64,000 nucleotides of DNA from Candidatus Latescibacterota bacterium (GTDB lineage: Bacteria; Krumholzibacteriota; Krumholzibacteriia; WVZY01): the NCBI GenBank assembly GCA_963791045.1, contig CAWBQK010000017.1, positions 256,001 to 320,000 on the forward strand, written 5' to 3'. The translations under genes and the position numbers were made by a program. Positions 36,733 to 52,527 of this stretch are shown here, one piece after another (the stretch's first letter is position 1; every line of letters starts with the position of its first letter). A model generated the notes under the pieces. That model had not been told where the DNA came from and did no database searches. It saw nothing but the letters and a program-made list of their open reading frames with translations.

Positions 36733-36971
36733 ACTCGCGAACCGTAGACTTATACGCTCACTAGCACGAACCCACGGTACTTCCATTAGAATTCGTCCGG
36801 GTGGTGGTGTATGCGTCCTGGCTGATGCCGTCCCTGCATCTCCCATCAGATGGGCCCCCTTCATTCGTTGTTTTGACAATGATCTGCTTTCTCTGTTAGA
36901 TTCTCTGATACTTATCCGCCTGCGTGACAGTGACCGCATCTGTCAGAATAAACCCGCAAGGAAAGCATGGA

Positions 36972-39101
36972 ATGATCGGTCGGCGAATAAAACAATACGA
37001 CATCGTCGAGGAAATCGGCGGCGGTGGAATGGGCGTTTTATACAAAGCCCTCGACACCAGGCTCAAACGCCACGTCGCGCTCAAATTTCTCCCACCCGAG
37101 TTGACGAGAGATCTTGCCGCGAAGGAGCGGTTTATCCGCGAGGCCAGGGCCGCGTCAACCATTCAACATCCCAATATCTGCACCATCCATGAGATCGACG
37201 AGACCGATGACGGCCACATGTTCATCTGTATGGAATTTTACGAAGGGGAGACGCTCGGCGAGAGGCTTTCACGAGGGCCGCTCGAGGTGGACGAGGCAGT
37301 CCGTTTTGTGATTCAGGCCGCGCAGGGACTGGCAAAGGCACATGAAGCGGGGATGGTTCATCGCGACATCAAACCGGCCAACATAATGGTGACCGGTGAC
37401 GGCCTGGTCAAAATACTCGATTTTGGTTTGGCGAAACACGGCGGCGCCTCGATATCGAAGAAAGAACCCACCGCCGGTACCGTCATGTACATGTCTCCCG
37501 AACAGGCCAGCGGCTCCGGTGTCGATGGGCGTTCGGACATCTTCTCACTCGGCGTGGTTCTCTATGAACTTCTTTCAGGTGACGCGCCATTCAAAGGCGA
37601 CAACGACGCCGTAATAATGTACTCGATCGCGAATCTCGATCCCGCCTCTCTGACGACAATTCGTGAAGACGTATCGTCCAAGCTAGACCGGGTCGTTTTC
37701 AAGGCTCTCGAGAAGGACAAGGCGCGACGATACCAGGTCGTCGACGAGTTTCTGGCGATGCTCAAAGGCTGGTTGCGGGCGCATGAGACCGGCCAAGGGG
37801 AAGAGGAGCCCGGGCAGCCGTCGATTGCCGTCCTTCCATTTGCAAACATGAGTACAGACAAAGACCAGGATCACTTCTGTGATGGGATGACGGAAGACAT
37901 AATTAACAACCTTTCGCAAATCGCGGGGCTTCGCGTCGCTGCGCGCACGTCGTCATTTGCATTTAAAGGAAAGCGAAAGGATATACGTGAGATCGGCCAA
38001 CATCTTGGGGTGGAGACGATTCTCGAGGGTGGCGTGCGCAAGGCGGGGAACCAGTTAAGGATTACCGTACAACTCATCAATATCGAGAATGGCTATCAGA
38101 TGTGGTCGGAGCGTTATGATCGTGATTTCGAGGACGTCTTTGCCGTACAAGATGAGATCGGCCGAAACATCGCGGGCGCCCTGGAAGTGCAGTTGACCGA
38201 ACGAGACGAACGGGTCCTGCAAAAAATCCAGACTCGCGACGCCGGCGCCTACGATTTCTACGTGCGGGGCAGAGAGAGTTTTCATCGGCTCGGATTGAAG
38301 CCGCTCGAACGCGCGCGAAATCTCTTCACCAGTGCCTTTATTACCGACCCCGAATATGCCCTGGCCTATTGCGGTCTCGCCGACTGTCACTCGGTTCTTT
38401 ATCTCTATTTCGACAACGACAAGACAAATCTGGAGATTGCGCTCACGGCGAGCAAGAAAGCTCTCGATCTGGCGCCGGACCTCGCGGAATCTCACGCCTC
38501 GCATGGCCTCGCTGTCACATGTGACAAACGTTATGACAAGGCGGACGAAGAATACGCTAGAGCCATCGAACTCTCTCCAAGGCTGTTTGAAGCGTATTAC
38601 TATGCCGGGCGGACGCATTGGGTGCGGGGGGACCTGGAAACGGCCGTGGAGTACTTTATCAAAGCGAGCGAGGTGAGACCCGAGGACTATCAGGCGCTGC
38701 TTCTGGCGGCCAACGCGTTCAAAAGCCTGAACCGTCCGACGGAATTCGAAGAATTGTGCCGCAGGGGGCTCGCCGTAGCGGAAACACACCTCGAATACGA
38801 GCCCGATGATACACGGGCATGGTATCTGGGCGCTCAGGCGCTGATGTGCCTTGGGGAGCGTGCCAAGGCCGTCGAATGGGTTCAACTCGCCCTGGCCCTG
38901 GAACCGAGCGATTCGCTCACACTCTATAACTCGGCCTGTGTGTACAGCGAGGCCGGAATGCTCGACACGTTCTTTGGCTACTTTGAGCAGGCGATGAGCA
39001 GTGGGTTTCTCATGAGGGCATGGATAGAAAACGATCCCTACCTTGACAACGTCAGACAGGAACCCCGATTTCAAGAACTGGTCGACAAAATGCCCTCCTG
39101 A
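36972..39101 (+). CDS. Hanks-type Ser/Thr kinase with TolB-N-like domain and TPRs
   Basis: IGGGGMG, VALK, HRDIKPAN, DFG, YMSPEQ; SIAVLPFANMS; TPR tail. Confidence 0.92.
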   Translation: MIGRRIKQYDIVEEIGGGGMGVLYKALDTRLKRHVALKFLPPELTRDLAAKERFIREARAASTIQHPNICTIHEIDETDDGHMFICMEFYEGETLGERLSRGPLEVDEAVRFVIQAAQGLAKAHEAGMVHRDIKPANIMVTGDGLVKILDFGLAKHGGASISKKEPTAGTVMYMSPEQASGSGVDGRSDIFSLGVVLYELLSGDAPFKGDNDAVIMYSIANLDPASLTTIREDVSSKLDRVVFKALEKDKARRYQVVDEFLAMLKGWLRAHETGQGEEEPGQPSIAVLPFANMSTDKDQDHFCDGMTEDIINNLSQIAGLRVAARTSSFAFKGKRKDIREIGQHLGVETILEGGVRKAGNQLRITVQLINIENGYQMWSERYDRDFEDVFAVQDEIGRNIAGALEVQLTERDERVLQKIQTRDAGAYDFYVRGRESFHRLGLKPLERARNLFTSAFITDPEYALAYCGLADCHSVLYLYFDNDKTNLEIALTASKKALDLAPDLAESHASHGLAVTCDKRYDKADEEYARAIELSPRLFEAYYYAGRTHWVRGDLETAVEYFIKASEVRPEDYQALLLAANAFKSLNRPTEFEELCRRGLAVAETHLEYEPDDTRAWYLGAQALMCLGERAKAVEWVQLALALEPSDSLTLYNSACVYSEAGMLDTFFGYFEQAMSSGFLMRAWIENDPYLDNVRQEPRFQELVDKMPS

Positions 39102-42277: not shown

Positions 42278-42306
42278 TTGCAAACTTATTGATATTGAAT
42301 TATCAT
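42278..42306 (+). promoter_or_regulatory. Promoter with overlapping Fur/Zur-type operator
   Basis: TTGCAA-17-TATCAT; near-palindrome TGATATT-GA-ATTATCA (42290-42305). Confidence 0.65.
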
Positions 42307-42341
42307 GTACAACGGTAGTTCAACCATGGGGGGGGTAAAAA

Positions 42342-42716
42342 ATGCCAGCGCGACGTAACACTCAGCAACGCGCGGCGATTCTCGATGCCCTTGAAGAAAT
42401 TGGCCGGCCGCTCACCGCTGAAGAGATTCACGCGGAGGCGAAGAAACGTGCCCGAGGCCTGGGAATCGCCACCGTTTATCGAAATTTGAAGACGATGATC
42501 GGCGAGGAGAAACTCGCGATCGTTGACCTTCCTGGAGAACCGTCTCGTTACGAGATCGCCGGGAAAGCGCACCATCACCACTTTGTTTGTGATCTGTGCG
42601 AACGTGTGTTTGAGATCGAAAACTGTTCGTCAAATGTCCTGGAGATGACACCGCGAGGATTCCGTCTCGACCGCCATGAGGTAATACTCTACGGCCGCTG
42701 CGCGGATTGCCTTTAG
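42342..42716 (+). CDS. Fur-family regulator, probably Zur
   Basis: T.QR.AIL, ATVYRNL, HHHHFVCDLC, C-terminal GRCADC; heads znuACB. Confidence 0.88.
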   Translation: MPARRNTQQRAAILDALEEIGRPLTAEEIHAEAKKRARGLGIATVYRNLKTMIGEEKLAIVDLPGEPSRYEIAGKAHHHHFVCDLCERVFEIENCSSNVLEMTPRGFRLDRHEVILYGRCADCL

Positions 42717-42729
42717 ATCTTCTCGAAAG

Positions 42730-43668
42730 ATGTCACAACTCACCGCCAGACTATTATATTCCGCCATCGCCCTGGCGATCTTGTTCGCGATTTGTCCGGT
42801 CGAAAAGGCGGGCGCCGGACCGCCCCAGCAGCAGGGAACCGGCATGTTGACGTGTACCGTCAGCATTCTGCCGCAGAAGTATTTTGTTGAGAGGATTGCC
42901 GGCGAGCATGTAGTTGTTGATGTGATGGTCGGTTCAGGCCAGTCGCCCGCCACATACGAACCCACGGGTCGGCAGCTTTCGGCTCTGTCCGATTCGCGCC
43001 TGTATTTCTCGATCGGAGTCGCGTTCGAACAAACGCTTTTGCCGCGAATTAAAAGAAGTTTTGAGGGCGTCGATGTGATCGATTCGTCCGCGGGAATTGA
43101 ACGCAGAAGAATGGCGGAGCACACCCACCATGGAGATGGGGAAGACAGCAACCGTGATCTCGGCGTCGACGATCCGCATGTCTGGCTTGCCCCGGACAAC
43201 GCCATTCGGATCGCGGAGAACATACGTTTTGCCCTGTGCAGACACGATCCGGCGAGGACGTCAATATACAATCGAAATTTTGAAGCGCTCAAGTTGGAGT
43301 TACACCAAACAGACATCCTCGTCGCTGAAATTCTTTCCACCCATTCGGGACAGGAGATTTTTGTATTTCACCCCGCATACGGCTATTTCACCGATGAATA
43401 CGGACTGATTCAAGTGCCCATCGAGGTAGCGGGCGGCACGCCCGGACCCAGGCACCTCGCCGGAATTATCGATCACGCGAAAGCTGAGTCAGTGTCCACC
43501 ATTTTTGTCCAGCCGCAATTCTCACCGTCCTCCGCCCAGACCATTGCGCGGACGGTCGGCGCGGAGATACACACATTGGATCCGCTCGCTGAAAATTACT
43601 CCGAAAACCTGGTTATAATGGCGAGAAAGATCGCGGCGGCGCTGCCGACACGCACGGCGAAGGAATAA
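42730..43668 (+). CDS. znuA: Zn/Mn ABC substrate-binding protein
   Basis: SPATYEPT, His-rich loop, DPHVWL, FHPAYGYF, LDPL. Confidence 0.88.
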   Translation: MSQLTARLLYSAIALAILFAICPVEKAGAGPPQQQGTGMLTCTVSILPQKYFVERIAGEHVVVDVMVGSGQSPATYEPTGRQLSALSDSRLYFSIGVAFEQTLLPRIKRSFEGVDVIDSSAGIERRRMAEHTHHGDGEDSNRDLGVDDPHVWLAPDNAIRIAENIRFALCRHDPARTSIYNRNFEALKLELHQTDILVAEILSTHSGQEIFVFHPAYGYFTDEYGLIQVPIEVAGGTPGPRHLAGIIDHAKAESVSTIFVQPQFSPSSAQTIARTVGAEIHTLDPLAENYSENLVIMARKIAAALPTRTAKE

Positions 43669-43693
43669 TCTGAAACGCATTGTGGGAGCCGTA

Positions 43694-44446
43694 ATGACGA
43701 AGGAAATTGTTATCGCCGTCCGGGATGTCGACTTTTCGTACGATCGTCACAATCTCATTCTCGAGGGCGCGACTTTTGACATATTGAAACACGAGTTCGC
43801 CGCTGTGATTGGCCCAAATGGTGGTGGGAAAACTACCCTTCTCAAACTGATACTGGGTCTGATTGAGCCTTCAAGGGGGACCCTCCGGGTATTTGACGGC
43901 CGGGTGGCCAACGCAAGACGACGAATTGGGTATATGCCTCAATATCCGCGGCTCGACCATGACTTTCCCGTCACTGTTATGGATGTTGTTCTTATGGGGC
44001 GTTTGGGACAGACGAGGGTTATGGGTCCATTTCGGCGAACGGACATCGAAGCAGCCGAGGCAGCGCTTGAGGAGACAAGCTGTTTCGACCTGAGAAATCG
44101 TCCATTCTCGGCTCTTTCGAGCGGACAGCGGCAGCGAATCTTGATCTCGCGAGCACTGGCGTCCGACCCTGAGCTTCTCATGCTCGACGAACCGACATCC
44201 AATCTCGACCCGTCCGTCCAGGACGATATACAGGATCTCCTTCACACTCTCAACGAAAGAATGACAATCATTGTCGTCTCTCATGATGTCGCGTTTGTGT
44301 CCAAGTATGTAGAGAAGGTAGTTTGCGTGAACAGGACGGTGGCTCTCCACCCGACGTCGGAAATGAAGGGTGAACTGATAACAATGCTTTATGGAAACGC
44401 GGATGTGCGGCTTGTGGATCATGAGCATCATTCGCACGACGGCTGA
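43694..44446 (+). CDS. znuC: Metal ABC transporter ATPase
   Basis: GPNGGGKTT, LSSGQRQR, LDEPT, His-rich C-terminus. Confidence 0.88.
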   Translation: MTKEIVIAVRDVDFSYDRHNLILEGATFDILKHEFAAVIGPNGGGKTTLLKLILGLIEPSRGTLRVFDGRVANARRRIGYMPQYPRLDHDFPVTVMDVVLMGRLGQTRVMGPFRRTDIEAAEAALEETSCFDLRNRPFSALSSGQRQRILISRALASDPELLMLDEPTSNLDPSVQDDIQDLLHTLNERMTIIVVSHDVAFVSKYVEKVVCVNRTVALHPTSEMKGELITMLYGNADVRLVDHEHHSHDG

Positions 44447-44470
44447 CACGCCCGGGGGCGATTAACCACA

Positions 44471-45358
44471 ATGCTAGATTTCATACATGCGGTTGCGAGT
44501 CACGCGTTCATGCGTAACGCGCTGATAGCGGGCGTTCTTGCAAGCGTCGCGTGTGGTGTTATAGGCACTTATGTGGTTACGCGACGAATATCTTTGATTG
44601 CGGGAAGCCTGGCACACTCCGTCCTGGGGGGGATGGGTGCCGCCTACTATTTTAAGACGGTTAACGGATGGACCTGGCTTCACCCATTGCACGGCGCGGT
44701 GGTGGCGGCATTACTTGCGGCCGTGATTATCAGTCTTGTGAGAATGTATGGACGCGAAAGAGAAGACACGGTGATCTCCGCGTTGTGGGCGATCGGGATG
44801 GCCATCGGGGTCATGTTTATTGTGAGGACGCCCGGATACAAAACTGATCTTATGACCTACCTTTTCGGAAATATTATAATGGCGGACGACCGGGCGATCC
44901 AGCTGCTGGTGATACTCGATGTGCTGATCGTTGGGGTGGGGCTGCTGTTTTATAAACAGCTTCTCGCCGTATGTTTCGACGAAGAATTCGCCAAACTTCG
45001 CGGGGTAAGCATCGGGTTCTTTTATACGCTTCTCTTGTGTCTTACGGCGCTAACCATCGTAACACTTATTTACGTGGTCGGGATCGTCATGGTTATCGCG
45101 TTGATGACCCTTCCCGTCGCGATAGCGGGGAAATTTTCAAAACGTCTCCTGCAAATGATGATTCTGGCATCGCTGTTGAGCGCACTGTTCACGACGGGCG
45201 GTCTCGCGCTCAGTTACGGGCCGGACCTTCCCCCCGGCGCGACGACCATACTGCTCGCCGGGGCGGTTTATGTGCTGGTCAATTTGGCGGTATTTGCACG
45301 GGGAAGGCTTGGGGCCCGTTTCCAACGTGGCAAACGGACTCAAGATGGGTTAGATTAG
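44471..45358 (+). CDS. znuB: Metal ABC transporter permease
   Basis: LAHSVLGG, YLFGNI, FDEEFA..RG motifs. Confidence 0.88.
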   Translation: MLDFIHAVASHAFMRNALIAGVLASVACGVIGTYVVTRRISLIAGSLAHSVLGGMGAAYYFKTVNGWTWLHPLHGAVVAALLAAVIISLVRMYGREREDTVISALWAIGMAIGVMFIVRTPGYKTDLMTYLFGNIIMADDRAIQLLVILDVLIVGVGLLFYKQLLAVCFDEEFAKLRGVSIGFFYTLLLCLTALTIVTLIYVVGIVMVIALMTLPVAIAGKFSKRLLQMMILASLLSALFTTGGLALSYGPDLPPGATTILLAGAVYVLVNLAVFARGRLGARFQRGKRTQDGLD

Positions 45359-45371
45359 TATTTGAGTTATT

Positions 45372-47504
45372 ATGTGGTCTATTACGCAAGAAACCATACG
45401 AATTCTGAATGAGTCCGCGGGCTATCTCCTTTTTGGATTTCTCCTTGCCGGACTGCTCAACGTTCTCCTCAACCGGTACCGCCGTATCACCGGCATCCTG
45501 TCGGCGCCCGGTCAGAAGCCTGTATTCCTCGCCGCTATTCTTGGCGCTCCGCTCCCACTGTGTTCATGCAGTGTTCTTCCAACCGCGCTTACGCTCAGAA
45601 AGCAAGGCGCGAGCAAAGGGGCCACCGCGTCCTTTCTCATTTCCGTGCCGGAAACCGACATCATTTCGATCGTCCTCACCTATGCGTTGTTAGGCCCCGT
45701 CCTTGCTATCGCGAGGCCTGTGTCCGCGGTGATTACGGCGATTGTCACCGGGATAGTCATCAACGCGGTGGAGGCACGGTCAAAAGACATCTCGTCTGCG
45801 CCCTCGACTAACAAAAAGGGCGGGAGCGACGGTCAGAAAGAGAACGGGCTCGAACCCAAAAAGAGTGCGGCGCCGAAATCTGCTGATTCGCCGCCCGGCG
45901 GACACTGGCTGGTCAGAGCGCTTCGCTTCGGGTTTGTCGAGATGTTCGACGACATCATGGGCCAACTTTTTATTGGTATCATTATCGCCGGCGCAATTGT
46001 TGCCTGGTTCCCGTCCCTCAACGTTCAGGAGATGGTCGGTTCCTCGTTCCTCACGTACTTCGTGATGCTGGGAGTAGGCATTCCGGTTTACGTCTGCGCG
46101 ACGGCGTCAACACCGGTGGCCGTGGGGTTGATCGCCGGTGGCGTGAGCCCTGGGGCGGCACTCGTCTTTTTGCTCGCGGGTCCCGCGACAAACATCGCAA
46201 GCCTCGTGGTCCTCAACCGCCAGTTTGGCAAAAAGATCCTGGCGGCATACCTGGTTTCCATTGGAATCGTGAGCCTCGCTTTCGGAATTGCTCTCGATTG
46301 GTTGATCGGACCCGATTACTCCGTCAGGCACCTCGTCATGGATCCTCTTGCCGAGGCCGGTGCTGGTAAAGTCCAGATCGCCGGAACGATTCTCCTCCTC
46401 TTTCTTGTCGGGCTCAGTTTTCGCAGAACCGGAATATTGAAAACGTGGGTGATCTCGGCTTCAAAAAGATTCAGGATCTCGGTGCCCCCGCGGACGGTAG
46501 TGATATCGCTCCTGGCCGTACTGGCGCTCGGTTATCTCTGTAGCGGATTGTTCGTGGTGGATCCTGGAGAAAGAGCGGCGGTGAAGCGATTCGGAAGGAT
46601 AACCAACGGATATCTCCAGCCGGGGCTACACTATCGATGGCCGTTCCCGTTTGGAGTCGCGGATGTCGAATCGGTCACGCTTCTGCGCAGAGTCGAGATT
46701 GGCTTCAGGTCGGATCAGGGCGACTTCATGGCGCTGTCCGCGGAGGATGAGGGCCCGTTCGTTTCGGAGGCGTGGATGCTCGCGGGCGACGAAAACATCG
46801 TCGATGCGCGTTGCGCCGTCCAGTACCAGATCATAGATACTGAAGAAGCCTTTGGGAACTTTGTATACGGTGTCAAGGACAAGACGGCCCTGGTTAGAAA
46901 CGCCGCGGAGTGGGCGCTGAGAAAATCCGTTTCGACCAGGGGAATCGACTCGCTTCTCACCGTCGATCGCGGCGAAGTAGAACACGAAATTAAAACCATC
47001 TTTCTGCAGAGCCGTCTCGATGCGTGCGCCTCGGGCGTGCGGGTTGTGGATGTGAATCTCGAGTCGGTTCACGCACCGGCCCCGGTACACTGGGCCTTCA
47101 GGGATGTAGCCAGCGCCGTGGAAGACCAACGACAGAAGGAAAATATTGCGCGGGAATACTGGGAGCGAACGACGCTTGGCGCCGAGGGGGAAGCGTCGGG
47201 TGTCCTGTCGCAGGCGGACGGCGAGGCGATCGAGCGGGTGCAGAGGGCGATGGGGGACGGTTACGCGTTCGATGCCCTGCGGAAGGTTTACACTCAAGCG
47301 CCCGAAGTCACGGAAATTCGTCTCTATCTCGAGTGGATGGACAGGTTCCTCCCCGGGATGAACAAATACGTGGATCTCATGCCGAGCGGCCGCGGCGGTC
47401 GCGATGTTTGGCTTCGCATGGGACGGGATTCAAAAAAGGGAGCCGAAGGAATGATTAAGGAATTCGAGCTCCCCTGGTCAAGCGATCGGGAGGATACGCA
47501 GTGA
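45372..47504 (+). CDS. DUF318/SO_0444-type metal permease fused to an HflK-like SPFH domain
   Basis: PLPLCSCSVLP, FLISVPET, YVCATASTP, FLLAGPATN; then PGLHYRWPFP, MLAGDENIV, V..AFRDVASA, RLYLE. Confidence 0.85.
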   Translation: MWSITQETIRILNESAGYLLFGFLLAGLLNVLLNRYRRITGILSAPGQKPVFLAAILGAPLPLCSCSVLPTALTLRKQGASKGATASFLISVPETDIISIVLTYALLGPVLAIARPVSAVITAIVTGIVINAVEARSKDISSAPSTNKKGGSDGQKENGLEPKKSAAPKSADSPPGGHWLVRALRFGFVEMFDDIMGQLFIGIIIAGAIVAWFPSLNVQEMVGSSFLTYFVMLGVGIPVYVCATASTPVAVGLIAGGVSPGAALVFLLAGPATNIASLVVLNRQFGKKILAAYLVSIGIVSLAFGIALDWLIGPDYSVRHLVMDPLAEAGAGKVQIAGTILLLFLVGLSFRRTGILKTWVISASKRFRISVPPRTVVISLLAVLALGYLCSGLFVVDPGERAAVKRFGRITNGYLQPGLHYRWPFPFGVADVESVTLLRRVEIGFRSDQGDFMALSAEDEGPFVSEAWMLAGDENIVDARCAVQYQIIDTEEAFGNFVYGVKDKTALVRNAAEWALRKSVSTRGIDSLLTVDRGEVEHEIKTIFLQSRLDACASGVRVVDVNLESVHAPAPVHWAFRDVASAVEDQRQKENIAREYWERTTLGAEGEASGVLSQADGEAIERVQRAMGDGYAFDALRKVYTQAPEVTEIRLYLEWMDRFLPGMNKYVDLMPSGRGGRDVWLRMGRDSKKGAEGMIKEFELPWSSDREDTQ

Positions 47505-48391
47505 AAACAATCGGAAGCGCGGTTTTATTTGTGGTCCTGATGGTTCTCATCGGAACCGCGCTATTTTTTGTCGATGAGACCGAATATGCCATCGTCCTTC
47601 GGTTCGGGCAGCCGACCCAGACGATCACATCAGCCGGGCTAAAAGCCAAATGGCCATGGCCCATCGAGAATGTTGTTCGGTTTGACCGTCGTCTTATGGT
47701 GTTCGATGTTCCCGCCGTGGACGAACCACCTCGCGAATTTCTTACGCTCGATAAGAAGAACATCGAGGTGTCGAGTTATACCTGCTGGCGGATCGATGAC
47801 CCCCTCCATTTTCTGCAAACGGTAGGGGACCGCGAAGGCGCGGAGGCCTACATACGCGACATTGTTGTTTCCGAAAAAGGAAAGCTGCTCGGCAGAAACA
47901 ATCTTAGCGCGCTGGTCTCCGTGGTGCCGGAGCAAATTCGACTGGACTCGATAGCCGCGGAGATTCGAAACACCTGTAACGACGTCGCGATGAGAGAATG
48001 TGGGGTTCGCGTCATCGATTTTCGAATGAAGCGGATCAATTACCCCGAGCAAAACCGCAATAGTGTTTTCGAGCGGATGAGAGCCGAGCGCAAACAGATC
48101 GCGACGCGTTACAGAAGTGAGGGCGAGAAAGAGGCAAGCCGCATCCGCGCGGAAGCCGACCGGCGCCGAATGGAGATTCTCGCCACGGCGACACGAACGG
48201 CCCTCGAAACCAAGGGAAACGGGGAAGCGGAAGCGGCACGGATATACAACGAGGCGTACGGGAAGAACCGGGAGTTTTACCAGTTTTTGCGCACGCTGGA
48301 ATCGTATGAAACCTCGATGGACGAGGGCACGACGATTTTGCTTCCATCGTCTATGAAGTACCTGAGAACACTTCTCGATCCGGTTCGGTGA
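47501..48391 (+). CDS. hflC: HflC-like SPFH protein
   Basis: LTLDKKNI, FERMRAER.QIA..YRSEG, EFYQFLRTLESY. Confidence 0.88.
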   Translation: MKTIGSAVLFVVLMVLIGTALFFVDETEYAIVLRFGQPTQTITSAGLKAKWPWPIENVVRFDRRLMVFDVPAVDEPPREFLTLDKKNIEVSSYTCWRIDDPLHFLQTVGDREGAEAYIRDIVVSEKGKLLGRNNLSALVSVVPEQIRLDSIAAEIRNTCNDVAMRECGVRVIDFRMKRINYPEQNRNSVFERMRAERKQIATRYRSEGEKEASRIRAEADRRRMEILATATRTALETKGNGEAEAARIYNEAYGKNREFYQFLRTLESYETSMDEGTTILLPSSMKYLRTLLDPVR

Positions 48392-48422
48392 CAGACCGTC
48401 GCATGAGTGGGATTGTGTTTTC

Positions 48423-49358
48423 ATGCCGGACAGAAACATGAACGATACAAAATACGAGAATATACAACGAGGGTTGGCGGGTCGCCGGAAGTATGGCTGG
48501 ATTGCGCTATCTGTGGTCCTTGTGTGGTTGGCGACCGGGTTTTATACCGTGGATTCGAATCAACGCGGCGTCATCACGCGTTTTGGCAAGGTTCGGGGTA
48601 GAACGCCCCCCGGAATTCACTATGCGCTTCCACGACCCATCGATCGTGTGTTTACCCCGGCAACGACTGAGGTCCGCAGGATCGAAGTGGGGTTTCGCTT
48701 GAAAGGAGAGTTGTGGGCGGAGAAACGCCGTTCGGATATGCTCACCGGGGACCAGAATATCCTCAAGGTTATGATGGTTGTGCAGTATAAAATACGCGAG
48801 CCGGAGAAATATCTCTTCGATGTTTCGGAGCCGGATTGGCTTGTCGAGCGCGCGATCGAGTCGGCGATGTCCGCGTACATATCTCGTGTGTCCGTGGATG
48901 ACGTTCTTACCACCGCCAAGGCCGAGATCGAGATACGCACCGTCGAAGGCGCCCAAGCATTGCTCGATCACTATGGTGTTGGCGTGTCGCTCCTGACGGG
49001 CAACCTCCAGGTGGTTTCGCCGCCAGTGCCGGTCATCGAGGCGTTCAACGATGTGGCGCGCGCGAAGAAAGACAGCGAACGCACGATTGAAGACGCTCGT
49101 GTATATTCGAACGAGATCATTCCAAGATCCGAAGGGGAAGCGGAAGGCATCACGAATGCTGCCGGCGGTGCTTACGAGATGCGTGTCAAACAGGCGCATG
49201 GACACGCAAAACGATTCAACGATCTTCTCGTGGAATACAACCGTGATCGTAGTCTCACCAAACAACGATTGTACCTGGAAACAGTGGAGAGGGTTCTGTT
49301 AAAAACAAAAGTGGTAATCGTTGATGACAGTTCGACCGTCACCATCATCGAAGATTAA
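48423..49358 (+). CDS. hflK: HflK-like SPFH protein
   Basis: GVITRFG, PGIHY, MLTGDQNI, PP.PV.EAFNDV.RA, RLYLETVE. Confidence 0.88.
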   Translation: MPDRNMNDTKYENIQRGLAGRRKYGWIALSVVLVWLATGFYTVDSNQRGVITRFGKVRGRTPPGIHYALPRPIDRVFTPATTEVRRIEVGFRLKGELWAEKRRSDMLTGDQNILKVMMVVQYKIREPEKYLFDVSEPDWLVERAIESAMSAYISRVSVDDVLTTAKAEIEIRTVEGAQALLDHYGVGVSLLTGNLQVVSPPVPVIEAFNDVARAKKDSERTIEDARVYSNEIIPRSEGEAEGITNAAGGAYEMRVKQAHGHAKRFNDLLVEYNRDRSLTKQRLYLETVERVLLKTKVVIVDDSSTVTIIED

Positions 49359-49434
49359 TCCCGCCGTCACGCCCCATCAGATGCGCGTACCTCGTCCAGC
49401 CCTTTCCAATGTATACTATCGCTGATTCGAGGAT

Positions 49435-49569
49435 AAAAAAAACGAGAGTACTAGCCCGATGCCAACCGTGTCGCTTAACGCCCATCAGAGGCCCATGCGG
49501 CAACCGCTTCGCTAAAGCATTATAGCTTGAGAGCAGAGGGCTCACGCGAAGGTTCGGGATACTCTCGTT
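49435..49569 (-). ncRNA. Candidate structured small RNA (~135 nt, 6S-like rod)
   Basis: Perfect promoter immediately upstream; 10-bp closing stem AACGAGAGUA/UACUCUCGUU; internal stems; U-run at the 3' end. Confidence 0.65.
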
Positions 49570-49575
49570 AGTAAT

Positions 49576-49605
49576 ATTATACTCGGGCATCGTTTCGACT
49601 GTCAA
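49576..49605 (-). promoter_or_regulatory. Consensus sigma70 promoter
   Basis: TTGACA(49605-49600)-18 nt-TATAAT(49581-49576) on the - strand. Confidence 0.8.
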
Positions 49606-50034
49606 CCCCCCGGCCTAAATTTTTGGAATCCATAACCTGTTAATTCACAGTCCGTTGCACAGCCCATTTAACCTTTTTTCGACATCAAGGGGTTGCTGTA
49701 ACACGCTGATATACAACGCGTTGTGGTGGTGTACGAACTTGCGTTTTTATAATGGGTTGAAAGGGGGGCTTGATGTGAAATCCAACCAAGATACGGGGGG
49801 AGCATCTTGAGAGGGGTGAAAACGGTGTTCCCGGTTGCTAGCAATCTATGGCCGACCAATCGGGAACACCGAAGAAAATCACCTTCTCAGCCACCACAGT
49901 AGGTCGATGAGGTAAATCCTCTGCATGTTGCACCCCCTTGTAAGGGTAGGTTGACTTACCTGCTACCGGGCGATATTTTGGATTGCTCAATATGTCGCAC
50001 AGCAAAAAGCGTTCCGTGTGCGGTGTGGCGGGAG

Positions 50035-52527
50035 TTAAGCGTTTTTATATCTGACAATTACATTTGTTATGTCATCGTGTTGCTTGCCGTCCCCAAAGGC
50101 CAGAATCGTTGCAAATAGCGAATCCTGCAACCGTCCGAGCGGCAAGTTCCGGTTCGCTTTGAGAAATCGGATCAGACGGTCCTCGCCATACTCCTCGTCG
50201 GTGGGGCTGGCCTGCTCCGTGACTCCATCGGTGTAAAGAAAGAGAATGTCGCCGGGGTCGAGACGAACTCTTCCTTCTGTATAGACGTGGTTGCTATCAA
50301 TGCCGAGAATCAGTCCGCCTTCGCCCAGCCTGTCGGCGAACTCCGTCTTCAAAAGGATCGCGGGGCAGTGACCTGCATTGCAAAAAGAAAAGGTCGAGTC
50401 GATCATATCGATGATGCCGTAAAAGAACGTGGTGAACAACTCGCTCTTTGCGTTTGCACACAGATGCTTATTGAGTTCGCCGACGACATCACTGGGATTC
50501 ATCCGATCGCGCACGGCTAGGTTCTTGAACACTGCCTGGAGCGATGACATCAGCATTGCTGCGGGAACGCCTTTGCCACTGACGTCCCCGATGGCGACGC
50601 CGATACGGTTCGCGTCGAGCGCGAAATAATCAAAGTAGTCACCGCCAACCTCGACGGAGCTGACCATTTTGCCGGCGAGATCCAATTGGGAGTGATGGGG
50701 CGGTTTCTTGGGGAGAAGATCGAGTTGGATTTCTCTCGCGAGCATAACCTCGTTTTTGAGGCGTTCCTGTTGGATCGAAGCCTCGTGAAGATCGGCATTC
50801 TCCAGCACCAGCCCAAGATGTTCCGACAAAGTTTCGAGGAGCTCGGAGTCAGTTTGAGTGTAGAGCAGACCGGAACGTTTTTTTCCAAGTATGATGAGTC
50901 CAAAGAGAGCGTCCGCCGAACCCACGGGAAGACACACGGCGGCTTGTGTCGAGGCGAGAAACCCCAACGAGGGGCCATCCAGATATCTTCTTTCCCACGT
51001 GTTGTCCAGGTATTCGACCATGAGCGGCTTTCGGTAACGGCTCAGGTACCTGCCGAGAAGCGATCCTGTGGGAAACGTTTCAGGAAATTTCGCCCCGTTT
51101 GAATTGTCGGTATCGAGAGCGAGACGCCCGTCTTCCTGGTCGTACCGATAGAAAACAAAATAGGACGCCTTGAGAAGGGAGCCTATACGGTTGGAAAAGT
51201 GATCGAGGATCTCGGACGATTTGATTTTGTGTGAGATCTCCCTGTTGAATTCCACAACTTCCTGACGGTAATCGTATTCACCACGGAAAAACAAACGATC
51301 GACAACGCCCTGGACGATCTGGCGCGCGGGGGCAAAAATAACGGCAAGAACAAGGACCGTAATAACGGAGAAGTAAGTCGGGTCGAGCTTGAATTCGGTC
51401 GTAAAGTAGTCGCCAAGAAAACGAACGACACCGTAATACGCGGCTATAATGACACCGGTGAGAAACGCGTACACAATGCTCTTTCTCACCACAATGTTGA
51501 GTTCGATTGCGCCATGCTTGAGGATTGCGTACGCAAACGACACCGACACGAACGCGAGACCCAGCGAGCAAACAAATTCCCATGTCGTGTATGTCCCCGG
51601 CATGATCTGACGCCACACGATCATGGAAAGGAAGGGAAGCATCCCGACTATGGTTCCACCGATTGCAATACGAAGTTTTTGCCGCTGCGCCACCGTAGAC
51701 GATCGGTAATTGCGGACAAATACAACCATGGAAGCCACGAGGTACGCCGTAATGTAGAGAGTCGATATCGACAGAATAAGGGTGAGAACAACGGTCGGAG
51801 TGTGGTCAAAATAAAAATTGCGTATCGCGAAAACACAACTTATCAAATAGATGAGGGTCGGTATTGTGTAGATCAGCAGAGCACGGCGGATAAGCTCGCG
51901 TTTGCCGGGCGGGCGGAGCCGATCGGGAAAAACGAGAAAAAAGTGAAGAAAGACCGCGGGAAAAAATATCATTGCCGCGTCGTCGAATAGCTCACCGGCG
52001 ATCTGCAGAAACGATATGTCGAATACGGGCCTGTCTCCGAGAAGATAACAAATGATAATCGAAGTGAGGGCGAAGGTGATGCCGATGGTATCCGTCCGGC
52101 GGAGCAATACGAGAAGACCGGTCAAAAGAAATGTAAACCCAACGAGAACCAGTCCGAAGCGGCGGTGAACGATCGATGAGGGGATAGTAACGTATTCGAC
52201 CTCGACGGTGAATTCTTCGCCGTTCCTTTCCAGGACATATTCGGTCGGCTCGAAGGAGCCGTTTTTTCTGACGACAGATCTGAGGTGTTTGTAGTTACGG
52301 ACGGGCACGCCGGCGACGGAGATGATTTCGTCATTGAGTTCGATGGGTTTTTCTGCGTTTGGGCCCTTTGAATTGATGTTCTGAACTGTGAGATTCAGCG
52401 TCTCGATCCCCGAATATGGGGTATTTATAAGGTCGCGCGACCCGGGAAACTGGAGAAAAACCGTCAGGAGCACCAGGAGCAGGACAGGGAATCGGAGGTA
52501 CCGGTGGTGGAGCGGTGCTTGACGCAT
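50035..52527 (-). CDS. Membrane PP2C/SpoIIE (RsbU-like) phosphatase with PDZ and GAF domains
   Basis: VGGDYFD, GDVSGKGVPAA, CNAGH, YTDGVTE, DDIT; multiple TM helices; PDZ-like NDEIISVAG. Confidence 0.9.
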   Translation of the reverse strand: MRQAPLHHRYLRFPVLLLVLLTVFLQFPGSRDLINTPYSGIETLNLTVQNINSKGPNAEKPIELNDEIISVAGVPVRNYKHLRSVVRKNGSFEPTEYVLERNGEEFTVEVEYVTIPSSIVHRRFGLVLVGFTFLLTGLLVLLRRTDTIGITFALTSIIICYLLGDRPVFDISFLQIAGELFDDAAMIFFPAVFLHFFLVFPDRLRPPGKRELIRRALLIYTIPTLIYLISCVFAIRNFYFDHTPTVVLTLILSISTLYITAYLVASMVVFVRNYRSSTVAQRQKLRIAIGGTIVGMLPFLSMIVWRQIMPGTYTTWEFVCSLGLAFVSVSFAYAILKHGAIELNIVVRKSIVYAFLTGVIIAAYYGVVRFLGDYFTTEFKLDPTYFSVITVLVLAVIFAPARQIVQGVVDRLFFRGEYDYRQEVVEFNREISHKIKSSEILDHFSNRIGSLLKASYFVFYRYDQEDGRLALDTDNSNGAKFPETFPTGSLLGRYLSRYRKPLMVEYLDNTWERRYLDGPSLGFLASTQAAVCLPVGSADALFGLIILGKKRSGLLYTQTDSELLETLSEHLGLVLENADLHEASIQQERLKNEVMLAREIQLDLLPKKPPHHSQLDLAGKMVSSVEVGGDYFDYFALDANRIGVAIGDVSGKGVPAAMLMSSLQAVFKNLAVRDRMNPSDVVGELNKHLCANAKSELFTTFFYGIIDMIDSTFSFCNAGHCPAILLKTEFADRLGEGGLILGIDSNHVYTEGRVRLDPGDILFLYTDGVTEQASPTDEEYGEDRLIRFLKANRNLPLGRLQDSLFATILAFGDGKQHDDITNVIVRYKNA

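Follow-up and report, generated by a model that had tools for sequence, protein, structure and literature searches.

A metal permease fused to HflK, with HflC- and HflK-type partners: a candidate SPFH ring or cage that tethers its own transporter

HflK and HflC alternate in a membrane cage that encloses FtsH. To our knowledge, FtsH is the only structurally defined client of HflK/C, and the clients of stomatin, prohibitin and flotillin are debated. Here we describe a locus in a 64,000-nucleotide stretch of DNA from a Candidatus Latescibacterota bacterium (hereafter the window, G000:C17:256001-320000, where G000 is the window's own genome, an assembly with 80.9% completeness and 5.8% contamination). 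One gene of this locus encodes a metal permease joined to an HflK-type SPFH protein, and two further SPFH genes follow it. We call the 710-aa fusion F, the HflC-type paralogue C' and the HflK-type paralogue K'. An earlier note on this DNA had placed the permease and the HflK-type SPFH domain in a single 710-aa open reading frame (ORF) with no stop between them, and Pfam and NCBIfam domain hits bear this out. Our preferred reading, to which we assign a probability of roughly 0.6, is that F, C' and K' form a dedicated HflK/C-like ring or cage that tethers metal carriers. The three genes and the parts of F lie in the window as follows.

45372..47504, + strand: fusion protein F, 710 aa (single ORF, frame open throughout)
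45372..46430, + strand: F residues 1-353, SO_0444/ArsP-type carrier (NF033936 and PF03773)
46431..46547, + strand: F residues 354-392, Arg/Lys-rich linker and HflK-type anchor (model helices and basic residues)
46548..47504, + strand: F residues 393-710, HflK-type SPFH half (PF01145 and TIGR01933)
47501..48391, + strand: HflC-type paralogue C' (TIGR01932, 208.3 bits, cut-off 134.4)
48423..49358, + strand: HflK-type paralogue K' (TIGR01933, 225.7 bits, cut-off 159.4)

The closest known system is the E. coli HflK/HflC-FtsH complex (PDB 7VHP/7VHQ, 7WI3, 9CZ2, 9PAW). From its membrane anchor onwards F is built like the E. coli proteins, with the SPFH domain, the long helix and the C-terminal strands following in the same sequence, and in both systems the genes are adjacent. 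The window's system differs in having three paralogues rather than two, in the gene order F-C'-K' rather than K-C, and in one K-type subunit that bears a nine-helix metal carrier at its N-terminus. The trio also falls into clades separate from the canonical proteins, a canonical pair is present in G000 as well, and no link to ftsH was seen. The carrier itself resembles Shewanella oneidensis SO_0444, annotated as a Cu/Zn efflux protein (PMC3219624, in part), in that it passes the NF033936 profile and conserves the Cys-Ser-Cys motif. SO_0444 is unfused and predicted to be under a ZntR-type regulator (PMC3219624, in part), whereas the window's carrier is fused to HflK and lies behind a Fur-family regulator and ZnuABC.

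Three further systems bear comparison. Stomatin cages, by the title of PDB 9ZD2 (aquaporin 1 with endogenous human stomatin), likewise place an SPFH ring with a polytopic transport protein rather than a protease, and SLC transporters are named among stomatin-associated proteins (bioRxiv 10.1101/2025.08.30.673307, in part). Those cages are cytosolic-face homo-oligomers whose clients are bound non-covalently; here there are three paralogues, the periplasmic face is predicted and the client is fused. Mycobacterial PacL1-CtpC also sets a scaffold beside a metal exporter, which it stabilises and clusters into high-molecular-weight membrane foci; PacL1, however, is a small DUF1490 protein rather than an SPFH protein, its foci are flotillin-independent and nothing is fused (PMC9374683, in part). 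In concept the F-C'-K' trio resembles both stomatin cages and PacL1-CtpC, and it is a member of neither. Finally, SPFH-NfeD pairs such as E. coli QmcA-YbbJ (PDB 8Z5G, whose chain 8z5g_A is among the Foldseek matches to F) combine an SPFH protein with an adjacent, dedicated membrane partner, but that partner is NfeD and not a transporter, and these pairs have one SPFH paralogue and no fusion; G000 itself carries stomatin-like singles of this kind at other sites.

A literature search, with subscription journals outside its coverage, found no paper on a permease-SPFH or ArsP/SO_0444-HflK fusion, and the accessible parts of surveys of SPFH proteins and of the ArsP family make no mention of such a fusion (PMC2636767, PMC7176098). 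The fusion design is apparently undescribed in the literature. Fused proteins already stand in the databases, with names like "SO_0444 family Cu/Zn efflux transporter" or "HflK protein".

The N-terminal half of F scored 333.1 bits against NF033936 (SO_0444 Cu/Zn efflux transporter; cut-off 300), with a match spanning F residues 9-346 and profile positions 2-347 of 351, and 157 bits against PF03773 (ArsP_1). Its translation holds PLCSCSV (residues 60-68) and YVCATAS. Of 106 full-length fusions in the alignment, the window's own included, 99-100% retain the motif cysteines, and both cysteines of the Cys-Ser-Cys motif expected of an SO_0444-family member are present in 99%; this is the most conserved motif of the family (bioRxiv 10.1101/2022.07.06.499078, in part). 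In the predicted structure of F (predicted local distance difference test score, pLDDT, 76.5) the carrier consists of two similar inverted halves with broken helices at PLCSCS and YVCATAS, a disordered central loop at 143-175 and a ninth membrane helix at 333-353. A model of the carrier alone reached a pLDDT of 84.7 and a predicted template modelling score of 0.84. Its fold was nearest to ArsB (10tp_A; Z 12.4, 271 residues aligned, root-mean-square deviation 5.8), and its 13 best chains, at Z 12.4-8.3, were ArsB, Pho90, YdaH, INDY, TRAP, DASS and CNT, with the next chain at Z 5.4; for helical bundles, a Z below about 13 may mean a common arrangement only. These matches hint at an elevator-type carrier. 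A 2020 paper differs from this hint in placing ArsP in the TOG superfamily with a 4+4 topology (PMC7176098, in part).

The carrier is followed by a linker modelled as an amphipathic helix (355-367) and a single anchor helix (373-390). The positive-inside rule, taken alone for orientation, would place the carrier's C-terminus and the linker in the cytoplasm. The SPFH part would then face the periplasm, because the cytoplasmic linker sits where the N-terminus of HflK lies. In the model, the SPFH half comprises an SPFH domain (393-567), a long coiled-coil helix (573-659) and C-terminal strands, and residues 394-661 passed PF01145 (Band_7; 50 bits, cut-off 23.6). A Foldseek search with the whole F model gave SPFH matches only, and the permease fold was compared through the separate carrier model. 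The best matches were E. coli HflK chains (9cz2_XA at 4.3e-14, 7vhq_E, 9paw and 7wi3_B) from FtsH-HflK/C complexes, followed by stomatin, prohibitin, QmcA, erlin and flotillin. C' and K' both pass the curated HflC and HflK cut-offs. The GTG start of C' overlaps the stop of F (GTGA) and has a GGGAGG Shine-Dalgarno sequence 7 nt upstream.

The fusion of permease to HflK is genuine, widespread and conserved across many phyla. Among the 120 best database hits to F, 118 carry PF03773 and PF01145 together (36-59% identity, about 670-790 aa), and the fused hits come from assemblies named Latescibacterota, Phycisphaerae, Planctomycetota and Krumholzibacteria. In a library of 50%-identity representatives, both domains occur in 116 of the best 150 clusters, and 105 of these are at least 600 aa long. 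We also scanned one genome per species and obtained 80 loci, 25 with a fused gene and 55 with an unfused permease. A C'-type gene and then a K'-type gene follow directly after F, on the same strand, in all 24 fused loci with downstream DNA (the contig of the 25th is 1632 nt long). The search for conserved fusions and for this neighbourhood, which the earlier note had proposed, recovers the trio in 24 of 24 loci.

ZnuABC-like genes, in contrast to the trio, adjoin only 5 of the 25 fused loci of the survey and 3 of the 55 unfused ones (6 of 26 fused loci overall). They stand upstream of the fused gene in L019 and L067 and downstream in L051, L054 and L059. The znu/Zur link is local and outside the conserved module. 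Pfam scans of 78 of the 131 picked flanking ORFs returned no FtsH-like gene and no other conserved neighbour. L027 has a ZIP transporter after its trio, and three related loci have an Fe/Mn superoxide dismutase close by.

Among 40 genomes related to G000, the full fusion was found in G012 only (58% identity), with the trio beside it and no metal genes beside it. Unfused homologues with 48-61% identity occur in at least 17 others. One of them, in G010 (of the same genus as G012), stands in the window's own order, fur-znuA-znuC-znuB-permease, with an unfused 377-aa permease and no SPFH genes. This G010 permease gene (contig 1, 2952428-2953552, L112) has one reported in-frame TGA, and selenocysteine-containing members (Sec-Ser-Cys) are reported for the SO_0444 family (bioRxiv 10.1101/2022.07.06.499078, in part). 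In the unfused locus L055 (1524-2585, Geopsychrobacteraceae) the permease is split between two ORFs of 154 and 139 aa and is probably a broken gene.

The same arrangement recurs with other transporters. A search for longer relatives of K' gave ten hits of 868-1113 aa, every one a P1B heavy-metal ATPase joined to Band_7. The four that were scanned all pass TIGR01525 (532-561 bits, cut-off 346), and two of these exceed the HflK cut-off too. The SPFH parts of the ATPase fusions group as a separate clade (91 in the Shimodaira-Hasegawa-like approximate likelihood ratio test, SH-aLRT) outside the F clade, with the deeper order not resolved by the tree. On metagenome contigs, 62 of 76 loci contain a complete ATPase::HflK gene, and in 47 of the 48 loci with at least 1.9 kb downstream it is followed by an HflC-type and then an HflK-type gene; in the 48th the HflK type is present and the HflC-type match lies in an overlapping ORF that was skipped by the filter. 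Two unrelated exporters are each fused in this way and accompanied by dedicated HflC- and HflK-type partners, which argues that the SPFH set serves the transporter.

P1B ATPases export metals. Because both transporter families fused in this way are exporters, the transport direction of the fused carrier is probably outward as well. SO_0444 is required for growth of S. oneidensis under ZnSO4 or CuCl2 stress, and the defect was complemented (PMC3219624, in part).

A third family is represented by P0124 (698 aa; G043 contig 77, 120059-123207; L136, L145), which is followed by HflC- and HflK-type genes and makes up the second trio of the genome that holds L026. P0124 joins an N-terminal membrane domain of about 320 aa that has no family assignment to an HflK-type part; 116 of the 120 best hits to this membrane domain also carry Band_7, and many relatives are in Planctomycetota. 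We considered whether the domain belongs to the cation diffusion facilitator (CDF) family, and this was not established: Pfam Cation_efflux matched weakly in 2 of 9 members (25.9 and 28.8 bits), and a 25-member profile searched against solved structures matched HflK/HflC only.

The descent of the SPFH parts was examined in a tree of 91 rows, comprising the complete trios of 24 loci, of the window and of G012, the canonical pairs of G000, G012, G042, G044 and E. coli, and an extra HflC-type copy from L085. Two stomatin-like singles served as outgroup, and the tree excludes the second trio of G043, whose three rows had long branches. Clade supports are given as ultrafast bootstrap/SH-aLRT. All 26 F rows formed one clade (100/97), as did all 26 K' rows (100/97); the two clades were sisters (90/80), and the C' rows formed a clade with the extra L085 copy (96/99). 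The F rows sit inside an HflK-side clade made up of canonical HflK, F and K' (100/100). All canonical HflK and HflC rows lay outside the trio clades, and a quick tree of all 94 rows agreed. The earlier note had proposed an HflK/C phylogeny; in ours the trio falls into lineages of its own, with the canonical pair apart. The pairwise distances of the three proteins are correlated with one another (r 0.79-0.84, reached by 0 of 2000 permutations); the three proteins travel together, and shared genomes alone would also give such a correlation. The extra gene of L085 (2643-3623, Burkholderiales) lies two genes upstream of that locus's trio and groups with the trio's HflC-type protein (93/89).

The permease domains tell a different story. 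Their unrooted tree has 79 rows (ten rows with a match envelope below 250 residues were dropped, including fused L020, L026 and L067), and in it fused and unfused permeases are interleaved, with 12 changes of which at least five are forced by well-supported branches. Constraining the fused permeases to one clade was 423.6 log-likelihood units worse (approximately unbiased test, p 3.7e-5). The window's permease domain is nearest to the unfused one of G010 (61%). The SPFH part of F has a single origin, and yet unfused permeases fall within groups of fused ones. The most economical account would therefore be a single, old fusion after which the SPFH genes were lost repeatedly. The interleaved permease tree may also be explained by domain exchange.

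In the window the trio is the downstream part of a longer gene series, whose other features are as follows.

42278..42306, + strand: sigma-70-like promoter TTGCAA-17-TATCAT, upstream of the fur-family gene (9 of 12 consensus matches)
42290..42305, no strand: imperfect 7-2-7 inverted repeat TGATATT-GA-ATTATCA, overlapping the -10 hexamer
42342..42716, + strand: Fur-family regulator, 124 aa (PF01475 FUR, 83.1 bits)
42730..43668, + strand: ZnuA-type substrate-binding protein with a His-rich loop (PF01297, 204.8 bits)
43682..44446, + strand: ABC ATPase of ZnuC/AztA/MntA type (PF00005 ABC_tran, 92.9 bits)
44471..45358, + strand: ABC-3 metal permease of ZnuB/AztB type (PF00950, 220.8 bits)

The co-directional order from fur to hflK with short gaps, as first noticed, holds: seven + strand ORFs follow in series with gaps of 13, 13, 24, 13, -4 and 31 nt. 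Terminator-like sites in the region number 6, fewer than the 9.3 in shuffled sequences, and those on the + strand all lie within coding sequence. The gene spacing and the lack of terminator-like sites between the genes, our sole basis here, suggest co-transcription. Contigs from four public runs, which are short, low-depth pieces, bridge znuB/F (45244-45394) and F/C' (47394-47556 and 47480-47630) and leave 46374-46655, which contains the fusion junction, uncovered, so that it has no independent read support there. The first hexamer of the promoter-like site begins at 42278, the start of the locus as we define it. Upstream of fur in the relative G010, both hexamers, the second together with its flank, are kept and the remainder diverges. 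The 7-2-7 repeat, which we take to resemble a Fur box, is a candidate Fur-family operator, and its pattern recurs with one mismatch in the fur upstream region of G010. It was read by eye; a repeat search with a 6-nt seed did not return it.

The best solved relative of the regulator is M. tuberculosis FurB/Zur (2O03, 62.8 bits), by a narrow margin over Campylobacter Fur (61.3 bits) and S. coelicolor Zur (57.9), and in NCBIfam its top matches are PerR and Fur, all far below their cut-offs, with no equivalog passed. It is probably Zur-like. The substrate-binding protein appears to be zinc-type: Synechocystis ZnuA (1PQ4) is its best solved relative at 185.8 bits, with the His/acidic loop aligned, as against 47-53 bits for Mn-type binding proteins, and it reached no NCBIfam equivalog cut-off. 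The ATPase scored 170 bits against MntA, 155 against AztA and 115 against ZnuC, all below the cut-offs, as was the permease's 152 bits against AztB. Because the binding protein best matches Synechocystis ZnuA and the regulator matches FurB/Zur (narrowly), the local gene context points to zinc. As for the claim that this is a Zur-type operon, both the binding protein and the regulator look zinc-type, the latter by a narrow margin; the conserved module does not include the znu/Zur link (6 of 26 fused loci).

Beyond the locus, an Rfam scan of the window returned four tRNAs and nothing else. Downstream and convergent lies a gene for an 830-aa PDZ-GAF-SpoIIE phosphatase (window 50035-52527, minus strand). 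Upstream (window 36924-39101, plus strand) are signalling genes including a 725-aa Ser/Thr kinase with TPR repeats, and also a ParA-like ATPase and two ORFs without any family; no connection between these flanking signalling genes and the metal operon was seen. The 676-nt gap between the convergent genes (49359-50034) holds a candidate small RNA (window 49432-49605, minus strand) with a leftward promoter of perfect sigma-70 consensus, TTGACA-18-TATAAT (12/12). The 5' end of the predicted transcript of about 135 nt pairs with its 3' end, which is followed by a run of eight U; its fold z-score was -0.35 (not significant), it matched no Rfam family, and no annotated feature lies antisense to it.

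We propose the following picture for the trio. The cytoplasmic C-terminus of the carrier would be joined to the membrane anchor of the HflK paralogue F, and F, C' and K' would co-assemble on the periplasmic face as a ring or cage in which C' alternates with K-type subunits and F occupies some of the K positions. Several carrier copies would then be held at the transmembrane fence of the ring, making a scaffold-built metal-transport platform with a tethered client. A plain K' beside F would give mixed K positions, and we speculate that this might space the bulky carriers. The scaffold could contribute stability, a lipid environment or a confined periplasmic space for exported metal. In G000 the trio is joined to the Zur-like-controlled znuACB operon and would probably be made together with the zinc-uptake proteins. 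The sequences establish the fusion and its conservation, the constant set of three genes, their descent apart from canonical hflKC and the dispensability of the SPFH part; co-assembly, carrier position, transport direction and regulation are inferred.

Several observations weigh against the tethered-cage reading. Shared control of an exporter and a zinc importer by a Zur-like repressor is a poor fit to detoxification; it would fit zinc delivery to the periplasmic side in shortage, or a carrier that is also able to import. The permease can do without the SPFH part, which is accessory, no requirement, because close relatives use an unfused permease (one of them, G010, within an equivalent fur-znuACB operon) and the fused permease domains do not form one clade. 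The central loop has at least two Cys or at least three His in 79 of 105 fused relatives, and the window's carrier, with 0 Cys and 1 His there, lacks such a Cys/His-rich loop. The SPFH half of F narrowly missed the TIGR01933 hflK cut-off (153.9 bits against 159.4). FtsH may yet be a client, as two of the five other fusion-bearing genomes, G041 and G043, yielded no separate canonical hflKC pair. Finally, the reported FtsH contact may correspond to a column that has Arg in all 5 canonical HflK rows, in 17 of the 26 F rows and in none of the 26 K' rows, although the column is weak as a test: the contact is reported as HflK Arg191, and the E. coli translation has Ala 191 and Arg 193.

A bolder version of the tethered cage, which we offer only tentatively, holds that the trio is an FtsH-independent metal-handling nanocompartment, with at least two unrelated exporter families, the SO_0444-type carriers and the P1B ATPases, tethered at the wall of the cage and pumping Zn or Cu into an enclosed periplasmic lumen or membrane patch. 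The enclosed metal might serve protected metalation of exported proteins, or simply be sequestered, and in G000 the compartment would be switched on together with zinc uptake.

A reading that we consider unlikely makes the trio a variant FtsH-HflK/C holoenzyme whose cage would go on enclosing FtsH, with the carrier tethered for degradation or quality control by FtsH upon metal or damage. Its SPFH parts are indeed true relatives of HflK and HflC, their best structural matches are chains of FtsH-HflK/C complexes, and G000 has an ftsH. In G041 and G043 the trio could be the sole HflK/C, and 17 of the 26 F rows keep the canonical Arg near the reported periplasmic FtsH contact, subject to the numbering mismatch. 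The trio is, however, not the only HflK/C set of G000, a possibility that had been raised against the original proposal. Among eight Band_7 matches in this genome we found a canonical hflK and hflC side by side on contig 11 (283.8 and 255.8 bits), with kefF-kefC as their neighbours, besides two stomatin-like singles and one TPR protein. Of the other fusion-bearing genomes, G012, G042 and G044 also keep a separate hflK-hflC pair beside the trio. No FtsH-like gene was present among the 78 flanking ORFs scanned, and the 64-kb window holds no ftsH, as first noted: two weak AAA matches on the same contig fall outside the window, and the ftsH of G000 is on another contig, about 150 kb from the canonical hflK-hflC pair and ahead of folP. 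The canonical Arg is lost in all 26 K' rows, a weak point given the same mismatch. We know of no precedent for a substrate fused to the modulator of its protease.

Two details belong beside these genes. On contig 27 of G043, two adjacent Band_7 genes gave no match to HflK or HflC queries. The ftsH of G000 (contig 11, about 409684-412294, L098) extends over two to three reading frames. Its main part, profile positions 76-464, is in one frame and its C-terminal part in another, the one in which folP continues; the N-terminal 75 profile positions had no match. The split is probably a frameshift error of the assembly.

More doubtful still is the idea that there is no joint cage, and that the SPFH part works in cis, where it would stabilise the carrier to which it is fused or sense the state of lipid or membrane, with C' and K' as a separate HflK/C-like pair that happens to share the operon. 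The carrier does occur unfused in relatives, and the SPFH part of F evolves faster, with a mean pairwise difference of 0.67 as against 0.56 for C' and 0.63 for K'. The trio genes, though, are never apart when F is present (24 of 24, and 47 of 48 in the ATPase form), F retains the coiled coil and C-terminal strands that form the cage wall and cap in HflK, and its stop overlaps the start of C'.

That the fusion is an assembly or gene-calling error joining two genes is refuted by its homologues and deserves hardly any weight: the G000 assembly is incomplete, with its ftsH split between frames, and the public-run contigs leave the junction uncovered, but 118 of the 120 best hits, drawn from many different assemblies and phyla, share the full-length architecture, as do 105 full-length 50%-identity clusters, G012 carries it at 58% identity, and the frame is open throughout.

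What an SPFH cage does for its clients is an open question, and here the client is written into the gene. A fused metal carrier with two dedicated partner subunits occurs in more than 100 sequence clusters from many phyla, and P1B ATPases repeat the design. The three-gene system allows a direct test of the scaffold, by comparing a carrier with and without its SPFH part as natural relatives do. The trio links SPFH scaffolds to bacterial zinc and copper homeostasis and suggests FtsH-independent uses of HflK/HflC-type cages. If the nanocompartment proposed above were real, it would represent a new class of SPFH compartment in bacteria, one whose defining feature is the covalent attachment of its clients.

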